From Candidatus Cloacimonadales bacterium (GTDB lineage Bacteria > Cloacimonadota > Cloacimonadia > Cloacimonadales > JAFGVF01), in assembly GCA_963677495.2 (NCBI GenBank), contig CAXXOU010000001.1:64001-128000 (forward strand): a stretch of DNA of 64,000 bases. Direction: 5' to 3'. Of this stretch, positions 18,001 to 24,000 are shown in pieces (position 1 is the first letter of the stretch; the number at the start of each line of letters is the position of its first letter). Position numbers: made by a program.

Positions 18001-21000
18001 AAAGTCTTTCATGTCATTTGTTGTAAGCCCAATTGCACCATAATTTGACCCGCTCATACCAGTTACTTCCATATCCCAAAATGAAGAGTTGAATGATCTT
18101 TGAGAAATACCGGCTATTGCATATGTGTTTTCATCACCGTATACCAATGTTGTACTATATATGAAGCTTATGTATCCATTAGCACTTCCAAAAACTCCAC
18201 CTACATAGTTTGAACCTGTAACTTCACCTCTAGTATAACAATTATTACAGCTACCATATGTAGTAAGTTTACCGACCAATCCTCCAACATACTCACTTGC
18301 AGCAACTGTACCGGTAAAGGATGAATAATCAATATTGCTATCAATACTGAACCCGACTAAACCACCACAATTACTAGCACCATAAACTTGACCTGAAGTT
18401 TTACAATTATAGATTGCACTATTAACATCAAATCCTGTTAATATGGCACAATCCCATCTACCGTTAACATACCCATCATTTATAATAAGATTCTCAATTC
18501 TTGCATGTTTCGATAGGCCAAAAAATCCCACTCTGTTGTATCCACTGTAATGTAATGAAAAAGATTCTACTGCAAAACCTGCACCATCAAACCTTCCATC
18601 GAAATAAGGGAAAAATAATTCATGAATACTAGATAGGTTCAAATCATTAGTTAACTTGAAAGCGTAATTATCTATCTGTGCGAATACAATTGCAGTTCGA
18701 AGATCTCCAGGTGTCGAGATTAAGTAATAGTCTCCATCATTTAGAAAAGAACTTGCTATATCAAGAGTTAAATCATTTAACATCCACTCACTATAGATTT
18801 CTGATGACATAGCTCCCAAAAGCCACTTGGCTGAGTTGTTTATCGTTGAGTCATTATAGTCATAAAAGCTATTTCTTACTTCAGATTCATGTAATTCAAT
18901 TATTGCACATAATATACCCAATTTTGTTTCACCACTAATAGATGCGCTAGTATAACTGTTAGATATCTGGCTGTGTTCAACCCTTGCAACAAGTCCTGCA
19001 AGTGTATGTGTACCAGATATTGATACTGAACTGTTACAGTTTTCTATTAAACTATCATCTGCCCTTCCGGCTAACCCGCCTAGATCATTTGAACCTTGTA
19101 TTACTACAGAGCTTGTGCAACCTCTTAGGATTGATTCATTGCGCATGTATCCTACAAAACCACCCCCAAGATTGTTACAGACGATTTCACAGTCCACAAC
19201 ACAGTTCTCGATTGTCGTTTCACTACAGGCCCCAATCAATCCTCCAACATGTATAGTGGCATCTAGAGTTCCTGATACAGAGCAGTTATTAATATAAGAG
19301 GTGTCACTTAAACCAACTAATATTCCGGTTTCCCATCCTCTGGATAGAACAGTTGCATCATTTAGGTGAACATTTTGGATAGTTGCTGAGAAAATATAAC
19401 CAAAGAATCCTAGATTACAAACAAAATTTAATTCTGAAGCATCCAAGTTTGATATAACATAATCATTACCATTATAAGAACCAGTAAACATTGTATCATC
19501 ATTACCGATAGGACTAAATCCTGCATAGTCATTCCAGCTTTCAGTATCAGATGCATCAATATCAGCAGTTTGAATAAAATGACTACTCCATGAACTATCA
19601 TTTGTACTAAACCATAGAAGATTATCTAATGTAGCAATTTGGTAAGGATCATTTTCTGTACCGGTTCCAATAGGTTGAACACCATCCGCAATAAGTGAAA
19701 ACACACAAAATGTAAGTAAAAGAGATAGAACAAACTTATACATAATTCCTCCCAAGCTAAGTTCTTAGGTAAGATTGTATAAGTAAAAGTTTTGCTGTCA
19801 ATAGAAATAATTTTGATAAAGATGGTCGGGATGACAGGATTCGAACCTGCGACCACTTGAACCCCATTCAAGTGCGCTACCCGGGCTGCGCTACATCCCG
19901 ACTCATAAATCTACTTTTTAAGTACTATTTTTGTTGGCAAGGAAAAAGTGCTAAAACACTGTTAAGTATTCTCTAACAGATTTATTCTCATGTTTTTATT
20001 GATATCTTGTAACAATCAAGTATGTCAGGGCATAATAATTGCATGTGATTCTAATTAGGTTTTAACATAAAACTGATTATAATAGAGAAAAAGATATACA
20101 TAATGGAGGTATCATGAAGAAGATTGGCTTAATGCTAGCTGTACTTACTATGTTTGGATTACTGGCAGCTCAAAATGTCCTTCTTTGGGATAACGATAAT
20201 TACTCGAGTTTCCAGGAGCCGGGTGGGGAAGATTATTTCGGTTGTGAAGTATCGCTCGGTAGAGCTCTGCTTAGCAATGGAATAAATTACACAGAAACTA
20301 ACATCCTACCGGGCAACCTTTCGCAGTACGACGCTGTCTTTGTGACGTTAGGCGTCTACTGCGTATCCTGAGGAGTCACTCCTCCGGGATCAATAGGCTC
20401 GGTCGAGCTAAATATATTAGTTAACTATTTGAACCAAGGTGGTGCCTTGTACGTTGAAGGAGTTGATTTTGTGAACGACTACTCCGATACACCACTCATG
20501 CCATATTTTGGAGTTACAATTGGTTTCAACGGCTTCCCTAATGGTATTAATCACCTCGAAGGTGTTCCAGGATCTATAGCTGATGGGCTTGATTTTAATT
20601 ACCTGTTTGGTGCTTATCCGGATTATATGGTTGATGAAATCTCCCTTGAAGGTGCAGATGCTGTACTTGTATCTCCGGATAATAATAACCGTGTAACTTC
20701 ATACGCGACACGTGAGTCTCGTACTATTGCTTCATCTATCGTTATAGGTGGAATCTATGATAGTGATGAGCATACAAAAGCGGAACTCATGAATAGATAC
20801 ATTCAATTCTTATTACCAACAACTTCAAACGACGAAAACAGTCAGCCGGTAGCAACTGCTGAACTTCATTCCGCATACCCTAATCCATTTAATCCGACTA
20901 CAACAATTAGTTTTTCACTGAAGGAAAAACAACAGTTCTCTCTTGATATCTATGATATTAAGGGTAGACATGTTACTACCCTAGCCGAAGGACTTGGTGA

Positions 21001-24000
21001 CAAAGGTCTTAATAGTGTTATTTGGAAAGGTATTGATTCCAACGGAAAGAGTGTCAATAGCGGGGTTTACTTCTGTAGACTTAAAACTACCGACTCTTCC
21101 TTAACGACGAAGTTAACACTTTTGAAATAATAGTTATAGTTCATAAGACTAAAGAGTGGGACAGATGCCCACTCTTTTTTTATCTTTAATGCATTAGCGA
21201 TAGACACATTGATAATTGTATAGCAATACTTCTTGACAATCAAGTATGAATCACTCAAAATATAATATAGAGGAAGAATGAAGCGATTAATCATAATTTT
21301 TTTAATGTTATTTTTACTTGTAAATCTTTGTTCACAAGATTTACAAGAGATAGTTGATAAAGGAGAACTCATCCAGTTAGGAATGAGGTTTGCCAACTTT
21401 AACACAGCCAACTCCGGCGGTTTTTGCTATGAGTTTATTGACTTATTTTGTCAAGAATTGGGAGTTGAACATCGTTTCATTGAATCTGACTGGGATAGAA
21501 TTATCCCAGAGCTTAGAGGTGACAAGAGAAAAGAACCTATGGGTGATTTAATCTCCACCGGTATGACAATATTACCTTGGCGACAAAAGCTGGTAAACTT
21601 TTCTGAACCGGTTTTCCCAACTCAGGTATGGGTTATTGCCTCAGCTGAGTCAAAGATGCAACCTGTTAAAGCTTCAACATTTGAGAATGAGTTTGCCCAA
21701 ACAGTTTCACAATTTAAAGACCAAAGAATCGCATGTATAAAAGGAACTTCACTAGATTTATTAGAGTATGGTATTGAAGAACAAGGATTTAAGATTATAT
21801 CTTTTGACGGATCTGTGGATGATATCGCTCCTGCTATAGTACAAGGCAAAGCTGATGCCGGTCTTGTTGATATTGCAGATGCCTTAATCGCTCTTCATCG
21901 ATGGCCGGGAAAACTCAAAATCATCGGTCCAATTAATGAAACTCAAGAGTTGGCTGTTGCTTTTAGAAAGAACTCCCCAAAACTCTTAGCGAGATTTAAT
22001 GAGTTTTTGAAAAATAAACAAGAAGATGGAACTTACATTGAGCTTGTAAATAAGTACTACCCCTTTATTATTGATTATTATCCGGAGTTTTTTGAGCCAT
22101 GGCAAAAAAAGTAATCACAACGATTGTCCCAATAATCCTAGCTGTAACTATGCTGTTGGGTGTTATTTATATTCTGACAAGGATATCAATGAAAGATAGT
22201 AAAAGACTCGAGTTAGCTGCTATGGAGAACTATCTTAAAGATAGGACAATAGAAGTTAACAGATCTTCTGAACTTCTTAGATTGCTCAGAAATGACATGC
22301 AAAGGCTCTCGCTTAACCAAACACTCTTGACATATTTTACAAATGTGGACTTAGGAATGTCTGAAAAATATGGGCTCGGTTATAGCAAATACCAGATTAA
22401 AGAACTATTCCAACAATACCTTGATTACCAGATTATTGATAATGAGTTCTTCTATAGACAGATACTGCTAGTTGACAATGATGGGAATACCATTATCTCT
22501 AAATCAAAATCTGAAATATTAATTGAGAACAGTACAAATCCTCATATAAAGCAATTACTAAAATCGAATTATGCTAAAGGTGAGATAGTTGGTTTAATTG
22601 ATGACCAAACATATAGTATAATGTATATTCAACCAATCATACATAGAGGAGAATCTCGCGGTAAGCTGATTACTGTTATCAACAACTACATCTACTTTCC
22701 TCTCAATCATATGCATGAGTCTAAGCAATTGACTATACTGACGATTCCAGGATTTGAGGAACAATTATATAATGCTGGTATCAGTATTGCTTTTAATATT
22801 GATTCCTTGCCTTCATACTATGATTTGATTCGCGGAACTTATTACAAACTAAATGTTCAAGATATTTATAAAATTCCAAGAACAATAATTCTTTCACGAA
22901 TGAAAATTCCGGATACGAGCTTAGAGATAATAAACATAAAACCTTTTGAGCAAGTCTTCATGAAACCTGATCATAAGGCTTATACATGGACAGTGGTTAT
23001 CTTAAGCGTTATGCTGTTAATTGTTTTACTTGTGCTAGAAAGAACCCATCTAAAGAATCACTCTCTTCAAGTTAAAATTGATGCAAAGGCAGAGCAAAAC
23101 TCTAGAATTTGGCATAAGAACAAAGAACTTAACTTTGAAATTGAGAAACGTAAGTTAATTGAAGAAGAGTTGCATGAAAGTAGAATTAAAGCTGAATTCT
23201 TAGCTAAAGAGGCTCAACAGGCAAATCGGACAAAAAGCCTTTTCCTTGCAAACATGAGTCACGATATCAGAACTCCCATGAACTCAATAATCGGGTTCAC
23301 AGATATCTTACTAGAGAAAATTAAAGATAAACAGAACAGTGAGTTTCTTGGTCATATCAAAAGATCTGCTGATTATCTGCTTAATATTATTAATGATGTC
23401 TTAGATATTTCTAAAATTGAATCCGGATCTATGGAAGCAATTATCTCAGGCGTTTCTACTCATGAATTTTTTGATGATCTAAATGGGATATTTACACCTG
23501 AGTGCAATTCAAAGAATATTCAATTTGAGATCAATATTGCAGACAACACTCCTCAATTCATTGCAACAGACCACCAAAAGTTGAAACAGGTATTAGTAAA
23601 TCTGTTAAATAATGCTGTAAAGTTTACAGATAAAGGTCATGTTAAATGCCATGTTTCATTTGAAGAGGAGATGCTTTCAATCATTGTTGAGGACACAGGA
23701 CTGGGAATTCCAAAAGCATTCTTCCCATATATGTTTGAGCCATTTAAACAAGTAAAAGGTCAAAATCATAATAAGTATGGTGGAACAGGACTTGGACTAG
23801 CTATTTCAAAAAGAATCATTGACCTGATGGGCGGAGAGATTGCTTACAGATCCAAAGTTGGTGAAGGCACAACATTTGAATTGTTCCTGCCGGTTCAAAT
23901 CACAAGTAACATCAATCAAGAGGAGAATTCAACTCTATCATCAACTAAAACTATTGCCAACAAATTCAATATTCTTATTGCCGAAGATAACTATGTTAAT

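Follow-up and report, generated by a model that had tools for sequence, protein, structure and literature searches.

Known selenoproteins and secreted proteins comparable to the predicted product

The motifs CxxU and UxxC are named as the commonest ones in redox selenoproteins by a catalogue from 2026 (PMC13188914). In the thioredoxin-fold representatives (SelW-like, DsbA/DsbG-like, and thiol:disulfide interchange proteins), some of which are periplasmic, the Cys/Sec pair lies two residues apart between a strand and a helix. In the cell envelope, a TonB-dependent receptor featuring an FCYxU motif (NF049945; deep-Sep, PMC12013277) was also predicted to be a CxxU selenoprotein, as deduced from TGA/Cys pairing and a downstream hairpin. 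Furthermore, Table 1 of the catalogue includes a glutamine amidotransferase (GATase) selenoprotein carrying Sec on the class-I GATase fold; it resides in the cytoplasm, its Sec taking the place of the nucleophilic Cys in the GxCxG motif (GxUxG). Type A cargo of the type IX secretion system (T9SS) has in common a C-terminal sorting domain (Por_Secre_tail, TIGR04183) and a signal peptide.

The locus described here was found in a window of 64,000 nucleotides (the whole stretch of DNA analyzed) from a Candidatus Cloacimonadales bacterium, and is proposed, with a probability of about 0.8, to represent a genuine selenoprotein family addressed to the T9SS. The predicted protein is T9SS cargo, in contrast to the beta-barrel TonB-dependent receptor of the outer membrane, to which it bears no sequence relation, the NCBIfam scan having hit only T9SS-tail models. 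Compared to the cytoplasmic GATase selenoprotein, its C-x-x-U-G motif follows another strand, and no GATase match was obtained. By analogy of the motif, it probably works like the thioredoxin-fold CxxU selenoproteins; however, its modeled fold is GATase1-like and not thioredoxin-like, a Pfam thioredoxin match was not found, and its predicted route leads through the T9SS to the surface.

Structure of the gene

A preceding survey of the genome had reported a single frame of 338 amino acids broken by a TGA codon, and re-reading of the DNA gave the same frame, the same codon 86, and the same motif, LGVYCVSUGVTPPG. The frame starts with ATG at 20114, has its sole break at the TGA at 20369–20371 (codon 86), and ends with TAA at 21128–21130. 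The following features were recognized:

20105..20109, + strand, Shine–Dalgarno-like GGAGG, 4 nt before the ATG (read from the sequence)
20114..21130, + strand, complete reading frame of 338 aa if TGA is decoded as Sec (U86)
20114..20170, + strand, signal-peptide-like N-terminus with MKK, a hydrophobic stretch, and LAA followed by QN (read from the translation)
20171..20818, + strand, 216-aa domain with class-I glutamine-amidotransferase-like fold (AF2, Foldseek, VIA-align)
20360..20371, + strand, C83-V-S-U86 motif, with the TGA codon at 20369–20371
20363..20391, + strand, alternative hairpin including the UGA itself, GAGGAG-UCA-CUCCUC core
20396..20409, + strand, candidate SECIS hairpin, GGCUC-GGUC-GAGCU, beginning 24 nt past the UGA
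20876..21115, + strand, T9SS C-terminal sorting domain (type A), residues 255–334, downstream of the TGA
21151..21187, + strand, intrinsic-terminator-like hairpin and T run, past the stop codon

Under translation table 11, the frame is split into an 85-aa ORF (20114–20371) and a 233-aa ORF (20429–21130) in the same frame, the latter by itself having a TTG start. The signal-peptide-like N-terminus, which is of the same kind as the N-termini of the homologues as judged by eye, lies upstream of the TGA and the sorting domain downstream of it, and the two are joined only in the read-through product. The T9SS sorting domain recognized in the survey was recovered at residues 255–334 by PF18962 with 38.8 bits (cut-off 27; E 1.2e-9) and by TIGR04183 with 39.6 bits (cut-off 23; E 3.9e-10). 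Likewise, residues 1–250 were without a match at E ≤ 1 in Pfam or NCBIfam (release 20.0), in agreement with the earlier statement that the N-terminal domain has no hit in these databases. In public annotations, only the post-TGA fragment is present, under the name 'T9SS type A sorting domain-containing protein'. The whole stretch was present with 0 differences in three DNA runs from one sample, which may be the assembly's own source, and therefore the TGA is not an assembly slip.

Conservation of the TGA codon and distribution of the family

To determine the spread of the family, 232 Cloacimonadota species genomes were searched. Exactly one in-frame TGA was present in 95 out of 120 matches, these 95 originating from 74 genomes, with up to three TGA copies of the gene per genome (three, for example, in G144, G156, G158, G159, G162, and G173). 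Retention of the TGA in other genera, as asserted by the survey, was thus reproduced independently. Comparison of the sequences placed the TGA in a single alignment column (36 of 36 extracted TGA forms), in which five homologues carry TGC. The read-through alignment (A1; 38 sequences) showed conservation on both flanks of the TGA, a mean column identity of 52%, and invariant G61, C64, U/C67, and P72. The Cys homologues, also known from the survey, feature the motif WC[TLI]GCG[SD]TPPG.

A profile search against 1.84 billion representatives, repeated here with an outcome resembling that of the survey, yielded 1542 hits (E ≤ 1e-3). The 150 top-ranking proteins comprise 174 matched stretches, of which 100 begin past the U column and six full-length ones carry CxxC. 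Every named family member belongs to the Cloacimonadota, and the family is therefore regarded as phylum-restricted. The listing of such a family in selenoprotein surveys, left as a caveat by the earlier work, was looked for, and the Table 1 rows in section 7 of the 2026 catalogue (PMC13188914; 119 prokaryotic families and subfamilies) hold no such family. The family thus appears to be absent from the catalogues checked and to occur, so far, in one phylum only. The designation as a large unannotated family stood with respect to annotation, its size being qualified to 95 genes in 74 out of 232 genomes of one phylum.

In homologues, the domain is joined to Ig-like, CARDB, MAM, and CarboxypepD_reg modules, which are usual for T9SS cargo. 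The domain also exists in a wider version free of Cys and Sec, which accompanies secreted S8 and M4 proteases as an accessory module. Here, Pro and His/Tyr occupy the Cys and Sec positions, respectively (His in 21 and Tyr in 14 of the 67 motif-spanning stretches at the Sec column), an occupancy as compatible with ligand binding or catalysis as with a redox function. The neighboring E and D residues are conserved.

The downstream hairpin

The survey had described a hairpin with a 6-bp stem and a 2-nt loop, starting 24 nt past the TGA. Its start was confirmed, but the letters needed a slight correction: the stretch 20396–20409 gives a 5-bp stem (with one G-U pair) and a GGUC tetraloop, and a 6-bp stem closed by 2 nt could not form. 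The hairpin stretch obtained no match in Rfam, and the 81-nt stretch alone folded no better than shuffled sequences (z = −0.84), the support for this candidate element being comparative and not thermodynamic.

In this genus, the hairpin features nucleotide conservation only, without covariation of its own: an identical 13-mer, including four synonymous sites, is shared by all four species of the genus and by two members of other families, L031 and L035. Covariation was detected in alignment A2, which covers most members and relative to which the hairpin of this genus is displaced. In the hairpin columns 28–32/38–42, 85.9% of the cells were paired, whereas shuffled alignments gave 70.1% and slid positions no more than 54.1%; changes on both sides occurred in 36 cells, with 12.1 being expected; the observed values were reached by none of 500 shuffles. 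Several of the compensations are non-synonymous (e.g., V..N-T versus T..G-T). The distance of the loop from the UGA is about +30 to +33 in this genus, compared to +17 to +19 in the genome's own selD and +19 to +22 in its peroxiredoxin candidate. The hairpin was retained in five out of five Cys forms examined and is therefore not exclusive to TGA genes; it could be a fossil or have a role other than Sec insertion. The alternative hairpin (20363–20391) was not favored, being mostly a product of the Gly and Pro-Pro codons and weakened where Pro is encoded by CCA.

Selenocysteine and secretion machineries and gene neighborhood

The same genome encodes selA (444 bits), selB (wing domain detected), selD (381 bits, itself with an in-frame TGA), and a tRNA-SeC with the anticodon tca, along with the peroxiredoxin candidate; FdhA, GrdA, and GrdB were looked for in this genome and not found. 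Comparison across the phylum placed the genomes with TGA forms in lineages that possess SelD, which was detected at E ≤ 1e-30 in 63 out of these 74 genomes. The 11 others are all fragmented assemblies of 120–600 contigs, seven of them being less than 90% complete (64–89%) and four 93–98% complete. In the family f4, none of 98 genomes carried SelD or a TGA form.

Of the T9SS machinery, SprA, PorU, and PorV were searched: SprA (431 bits summed) and PorU (616 bits) exceeded their cut-offs, and PorV gave a sub-threshold match (159 bits, cut-off 250). At least 50 further ORFs with a sorting domain were detected in the genome. A literature search for selenocysteine-containing T9SS cargo returned no report.

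The neighboring genes of the family were not conserved across the genomes compared, and an electron donor for a redox role was not evident. In five genomes of the sister family f17, the short form immediately follows a gene for a NifS-SelD fusion. One of these genomes (L079) also has selA and selB just upstream, the four genes residing on one strand. The order in this sister lineage is selA, selB, nifS-selD, and then the family gene.

Predicted fold of the domain

The AF2 model based on the 38-sequence read-through alignment reached a mean pLDDT of 95.6 and a pTM of 0.93. The low model confidence previously noted for the CxxU loop did not persist, with no residue below 70. The model shows the three-layer alpha/beta fold of the class-I glutamine amidotransferase/ThuA-like superfamily, reproducing the earlier fold assignment (Foldseek: 2gk3, E 6.9e-9; VIA-align: 2gk3_A, Z 17.4; 5xb7_A, 17.3; 3rht_A, 16.8; 4jqs_A, 15.7). 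STM3548 (2gk3), 3rht, the ThuA-like 4jqs/1t0b, and the GH42 middle domain share the fold of the 216-residue domain with Z values of 14.7–17.4, an rmsd of about 3 Å over 174–191 aligned residues, and identities of 12–18%, with no match at the sequence level. According to their entry titles, 2gk3, 3rht, 4jqs, and 1t0b are uncharacterized or only putatively named. None of these is known to bear a Cys/Sec pair; if our reading is right, the family would place a CxxU site on a fold that is not known to carry one elsewhere. Sequence relatives of the domain were not found in the PDB.

The canonical nucleophile elbow of GATases follows strand 4. In the model, the CxxU motif is situated in a strand-to-helix loop, as the survey had proposed; by element order, however, the loop follows strand 3 and does not seem to be the canonical elbow. 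The elbow position by element order is taken by a conserved Y-x-E-G-x-D, not by Cys.

Proposed mechanism and alternative explanations

All sequence-level tests of the reading as a secreted CxxU selenoprotein were favorable, namely those of the Sec machinery, the shared TGA/Cys column, the conserved flanks, the covarying hairpin, the fold match, the T9SS domain and machinery, and the absence from Pfam, NCBIfam, and the 2026 catalogue. From these comparisons, we infer that UGA-86 would be decoded as selenocysteine by SelB and tRNA-Sec under the guidance of the hairpin that follows it within the coding region. The protein would cross the inner membrane via its N-terminal signal peptide, and the C-terminal sorting domain would hand it to the T9SS, the predicted end point being on or outside the cell surface. 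In the single functional domain, Cys83-x-x-Sec86 would occupy the loop that leads from a central beta-strand into the following helix. Next to it would lie an acidic site (Y-x-E-G-x-D and a later Asp) that is also conserved in the wider Cys/Sec-free family.

That the TGA is a real stop, the locus then consisting of two separate genes or one gene in decay without any selenoprotein product, would agree with standard gene calling, which gives two ORFs, and with the public records and the 100 out of 174 profile stretches that hold only the post-TGA part. This explanation is very unlikely, because the same break at the same codon recurs in 95 genes of 74 genomes with both flanks conserved and Cys in intact homologues, the downstream piece is without a signal peptide and the upstream piece without a sorting domain, and a search of the + strand from the TGA to the stop codon gave no terminator-like site. 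Decoding of the TGA as an amino acid other than Sec (Trp, Gly, or Cys), by a variant code or near-cognate suppression, is regarded as extremely unlikely: one library protein (P0006) has W at the column, which may reflect TGG or code-4 translation, but selA and selB are without internal stops under table 11, the gene has one TGA only, exactly at the Cys-aligned column, and a dedicated tRNA-Sec and SelB are present.

Considering the protein as a selenoprotein, it would most likely act as a cell-surface thiol/selenol redox or chalcogen-binding module, and terms such as 'redox centre' and 'enzyme' are provisional. Cycling of the Cys/Sec pair between selenol/thiol and selenenyl-sulfide, with extracellular disulfides or other oxidized S or Se compounds at the surface of these anaerobes as the substrate, is the most likely mechanism, at slightly less than even odds. 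Somewhat unlikely, by our estimate, is a role in which Cys, Sec, and the acidic residues bind a soft metal or chalcogen (Se as a selenotrisulfide-like adduct, S, As, or Hg) for capture, detoxification, or uptake instead of turning over as a redox catalyst. Such binding is suggested by the extracytoplasmic CxxU/CU binding and transport selenoproteins among the Table 1 entries of PMC13188914 (TonB-dependent receptor, BtuF, and ABC substrate-binding proteins), the His or Tyr at the Sec column next to the conserved E and D in part of the wider family, the adjacency to NifS-SelD in five genomes and to selA-selB in one, and one genome in which a family member is immediately preceded by arsR, a permease gene, and an ArsC-like gene. 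However, the ars context is not conserved in sister genomes, only two genera have sel genes next to the family gene, which could simply represent co-inheritance with the machinery, and no transporter is consistently nearby. Based on the gene order of the sister lineage, a surface selenium or chalcogen device wired to the Sec machinery, whose site captures or reduces extracellular Se (or S) and feeds the cell's Se supply, may also be envisaged, but appears rather improbable. Finally, the protein might be a hydrolase or transferase on the amidotransferase-like scaffold, e.g., a peptidase or amidase at the surface, in which Sec acts as the catalytic nucleophile and Cys only protects it as a selenenyl-sulfide. 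The fold matches including Cys-nucleophile enzymes (GATases and gamma-glutamyl peptidase), the catalogued GATase selenoprotein, and the occurrence of the wider domain on secreted S8 and M4 proteases are in line with this role. It is nevertheless judged improbable, since there was no Pfam match at E ≤ 1 to GATase (PF00117), Peptidase_C26, or ThuA (PF06283), hhalign to a true class-I GATase was not significant (probability 0.23%), the CxxU loop does not seem to be the elbow by element order in the AF2 model, and no His-Glu pair was identified.

Significance for Cloacimonadota

The case illustrates the systematic loss of selenoproteins in annotation, the public records here holding a generic T9SS tail only, and gene callers should join such TGA-split pairs. 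Anaerobic digesters and stratified waters are rich in Cloacimonadota. If our reading is right, the family may be a main client of the Sec machinery in this phylum. It represents a concrete target for metaproteomics and offers a way to test how selenium supply and the surface chemistry of anaerobes are connected. If the selenium-acquisition reading were true, the protein would be the first selenoprotein shown to pass through the T9SS. If true, the selenoprotein reading would define a new family and extend selenocysteine biology beyond the outer membrane via the T9SS.

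Target Gene and Its Product

Translation of the target gene with selenocysteine (U) at its in-frame TGA yields a product of 338 residues, in which no trypsin site falls from R50 to about R195. The following features were assigned to the gene and its protein.

Features of the target gene and its predicted protein (window coordinates)
4 nt upstream of the ATG, plus strand: GGAGG, by sequence inspection
ATG 20114 to TAA 21128–21130, plus strand: coding frame, sole interruption TGA 20369–20371
Start of the protein, plus strand: signal-peptide-like N-terminus (MKK and a hydrophobic stretch, with LAA and QN after it), from the translation
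Middle of the protein, plus strand: domain of about 216 residues with LGVYCVSUGVTPPG, then a short linker, from the translation
Residues 255–334, plus strand: type IX secretion (T9SS) sorting domain, exceeding the curated cut-offs of PF18962 and TIGR04183
21151–21177, plus strand: terminator-like hairpin after the stop codon

Residues 1–250 had no Pfam or NCBIfam match at E ≤ 1. No terminator-like hairpin was found on the plus strand between the TGA and the stop codon, and tRNA-Pro was the only Rfam match across the window at gathering thresholds. The putative signal peptide and the sorting domain are joined in the read-through product alone, and therefore the full-length protein is needed for either signal to serve. 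A stretch of 1201 bases over the gene was free of differences in three DNA runs, all of one sample that is possibly the source of the assembly itself; the TGA is therefore not an assembly error. At the RNA level, a 210-nt contig from the marine metatranscriptome run X5 matched window positions 20610–20819, to which its cover is restricted, with three differences. Given possible DNA carry-over, this match weakly suggests transcription of a near-identical gene.

Conservation of the TGA and of the Cysteine Pairing

A search with the domain only (E ≤ 1e-8) recovered matches in 83 of the 232 genomes of the phylum set, representing 31 out of 66 genera. According to our tally of the printed table, exactly one in-frame TGA was present in 95 of the 120 matches, while the TGA-free ones comprised nine strong full-length matches, five of them inspected, and 16 weak or partial ones. 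Among the 41 distinct genes extracted, a single shared column held TGA in 36 and TGC in five cases, embedded in the consensus G-x-[YWF]-C-x-x-[U/C]-G-x-T-P-P-G. The mean column identity in a protein alignment of 38 sequences was 52%, with G61, C64, the U/C column and P72 (alignment numbering) being invariant, which indicates protein-level constraint on both sides of the TGA.

Furthermore, a profile search against 1.84 billion representative sequences resulted in 1542 matches at E ≤ 1e-3, of which 831 also passed E ≤ 1e-10. The best 150 of the 1542 matching proteins provided 174 matched stretches, of which 100 start downstream of the U column, as is characteristic of gene calls begun anew past a stop codon, and 74 cover the motif. 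Within these 74, CxxC was found in six, tryptophan at the U column in one (known from the protein sequence alone), and the pair was missing in 67. No relatives were found in genome contigs when the target protein served as a single query.

RNA Hairpin Downstream of the UGA

Most members feature a 5-bp stem that begins 15 nt past the UGA and encloses a loop, for instance CGUGA or GGUCG. Pairing was observed in 85.9% of the alignment cells; shuffled alignments reached 70.1%, and sliding the partner strand left no more than 54.1%. Changes on both sides of the stem amounted to 36 cells versus 12.1 expected; these counts take in all 41 sequences, including those in which this hairpin is not used, and the observed values were matched by none of 500 shuffles. 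Some compensations alter the encoded amino acids (e.g., GUC..AAC vs. ACC..GGU), indicating selection on the RNA and not on the peptide.

In the window's genus, a different hairpin is located 9 nt further downstream (GGCUC-GGUC-GAGCU at 20396–20409), and its core 13-mer, in which four sites are synonymous, is shared unchanged by the four species of the genus and by two genes from other families. One or the other hairpin is kept in all five Cys forms. The post-UGA stretch of the window by itself folded no better than shuffles. Loops are positioned approximately +17 to +22 from the UGA in selD and in a peroxiredoxin candidate of the same genome, and approximately +30 to +33 in the target gene; an apical loop containing G-U, placed at distances of this order, is typical of bacterial SECIS elements.

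Selenocysteine Machinery and Its Distribution

The source genome (3.41 Mb, 4 contigs, 37% G+C, 99.5% complete) encodes selA, selB, tRNA-SeC and a selD with its own in-frame TGA, and the organism is thus able to make selenoproteins. The selA and selB genes reside about 58 kb from the target. A search for FdhA gave no match in this genome; GrdA and GrdB likewise had none, a result that does not show absence, since control genomes were negative too. A crude codon-usage scan for TGA-containing genes returned 33 candidates, yet missed both the target and selD, and was used solely to single out a peroxiredoxin-like frame outside the window (contig C1, ~302147, minus strand) whose TGA occupies the peroxidatic position (FYPGDFTFVU). 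A hairpin, CUCAGC-AGUU-GCUGAG, starts 13 nt after this UGA, and the gene is probably a second selenoprotein of the source genome.

Across the phylum set, SelD was found in 104 of 232 genomes, and at E ≤ 1e-30 in 63 of the 74 genomes carrying the TGA form. The remaining 11, all consisting of 120–600 contigs, include seven that are 64–89% complete and four that are 93–98% complete. In the largest family of the phylum, neither the TGA-form gene nor SelD was detected in any of the 98 genomes. In the sister family f17, all five short forms (334–364 aa, with the architecture of the target; genomes G211, G220, G221, G226 and G228) immediately follow a gene encoding a NifS-SelD fusion, as in the two loci listed here.

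NifS-SelD fusion regions (locus coordinates)
L079 (G228:C2:69600-84300), 6707–13760, minus strand: fusion gene directly downstream of selA and selB and immediately preceding the short selenoprotein gene
L080 (G220:C22:60800-75500), 4417–7994, plus strand: fusion gene immediately preceding the short selenoprotein gene

L079 carries selA, selB, nifS-selD and the short selenoprotein gene in that order on a single strand, and in L080 nifS-selD is followed by the short selenoprotein gene. The gaps in the loci of this family measure approximately 220–280 nt, and therefore co-transcription is not implied. The fusion proteins (731–746 aa) combine a NifS-like aminotransferase (Aminotran_5) with SelD (AIRS domains) and contain no in-frame TGA; a separate SelD with TGA is also present in some genomes having the fusion.

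Fold and Wider Domain Family

The AF2 model computed on the read-through alignment reached a pLDDT of 95.6 and a pTM of 0.93, with every residue at 70 or above. Foldseek and VIA-align 2 concur on a class-I glutamine-amidotransferase (GATase)-like fold for the entire domain.

Structural neighbours of the target domain model
2gk3_A (STM3548): Z 17.4
GH42 middle domain: Z 17.3
3rht_A (GATase1-like): Z 16.8
4jqs_A (ThuA-like): Z 15.7
True amidotransferases: Z 12–14

The comparison of the domain with a true class-I GATase by hhalign was not significant, and the PDB sequence search with the domain gave no sequence-level relative. A likeness of C-x-x-C/U-G-x-T-P-P-G-x-x-G to the snakin-type plant peptide 8x0r (C-x-x-C-x-C-V-P-P-G-T-x-G), falling on domain residues 50–78 (window ~20318–20404), was dismissed as chance (E 4.1, not significant). 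In the model, the motif lies between strand 55–61 and helix 77–88, and the next strand (92–97) ends in the invariant Y-x-E-G-x-D, which we take to be the position of the GATase nucleophile elbow; the CxxU loop presumably corresponds to the GATase loop after the preceding strand, spatially beside this elbow.

The 67 motif-covering stretches without the Cys pair have, e.g., G-I-Y-P-N-N-H instead of the motif, and retain a glutamate (66/67), an aspartate (58/67) and a later aspartate (61/67). Pfam has no model for this pair-less domain, which occurs singly or repeated in very large secreted proteins with S8/M4 protease domains, T9SS tails or dockerins; in the library proteins P0010, P0020, P0031, P0078 and P0047 (950–2240 aa), it is present up to three times beside subtilase or thermolysin domains, T9SS tails, and cohesin or dockerin. 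Partners in the Cys/Sec subfamily are Ig-like, NIDO, CARDB, MAM or CarboxypepD_reg modules, and a T9SS tail, recognised either as Por_Secre_tail or by the FlgD_ig model that overlaps it, was identified in 17 of 18 homologues scanned, the exception, L013, ending at the locus edge. As deduced from these architectures, modules and tails, the domain is predicted to be an extracellular accessory scaffold, one branch of which would have gained the Cys/Sec pair.

Gene Neighbourhood

On its downstream side, the target is followed by genes for a solute-binding protein and then a hybrid histidine kinase. Its immediate upstream neighbours are a further T9SS protein and a tRNA-Pro:

17572–19755, minus strand: 727-aa T9SS cargo with GLUG motif, divergent from the target
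19823–19900, minus strand: tRNA-Pro(GGG), between this cargo and the target

The 13-mer ACAATCAAGTATG, together with the preceding CTTG, forms a small inverted repeat (CTTG..CAAG) at window 20003–20024 and 21230–21248. Only two exact copies of the 13-mer occur in the 3.4-Mb genome, one upstream of the target and one upstream of the next gene (solute-binding protein, with the hybrid histidine kinase after it); it was not found upstream of target orthologues in the same genus. The repeat may be a shared operator of the target and the next gene.

In locus L075 (G004:C1:749500-765500), positions 4955–6942, the selenoprotein gene is immediately preceded on its own strand by arsR, by an ArsP-type permease gene and by one for a low-molecular-weight phosphatase/ArsC-like protein. 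This context was rejected as a conserved neighbourhood, being missing from the other 12 loci compared, save for one sister genome with an ArsC-like fragment. Likewise discarded was a DsbD-like gene lying 2.3 kb from the selenoprotein gene, as it was seen in a single genome only.

Likely Function and Novelty of the Family

The reading favoured here, at a probability of roughly 45%, is that the target carries a selenol/thiol redox site at the cell surface, because CxxU and CxxC alternate among homologues. Binding of a chalcogen or a metal at the Cys/Sec site is a less likely function, and a role of Sec as nucleophile appears improbable; none of the loci compared has a conserved neighbour suggesting an electron donor or substrate.

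A review of 2026 compiled 119 prokaryotic selenoprotein families and subfamilies (PMC13188914), and no corresponding family is found in the Table 1 rows of its section 7, parts 1 and 2. The families of Haft and Tolstoy (2025) were compared solely via the table of this review and NCBIfam models; NCBIfam release 20.0 holds no model for the domain. T9SS, secretion and Cloacimonadota are absent, by term search, from the main texts, supplements aside, of the deep-Sep (PMC12013277) and BSepDB papers, and no recent survey recovered by literature search is devoted to the family by title or abstract. Full-text literature searches yielded no relevant paper joining selenoproteins with type IX secretion, and the combination of selenoprotein or selenocysteine with Cloacimonadota-type names led to the Secmarker paper alone, which mentions a Cloacimonetes-type tRNA-Sec. 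With a natural Cys homologue as query, a protein atlas returned unnamed clusters only (best score 0.93), which gave no clue to identity. Named cluster members all belong to Cloacimonadota and are labelled 'hypothetical', 'large repetitive protein' or 'T9SS type A sorting domain-containing protein'.

Assignment of the target to a selenoprotein family is thus a well-supported prediction from sequence, and this family is apparently undescribed and, as far as seen, restricted to one phylum. The candidate family would add a new scaffold and a new predicted cellular address to those of selenoproteins.
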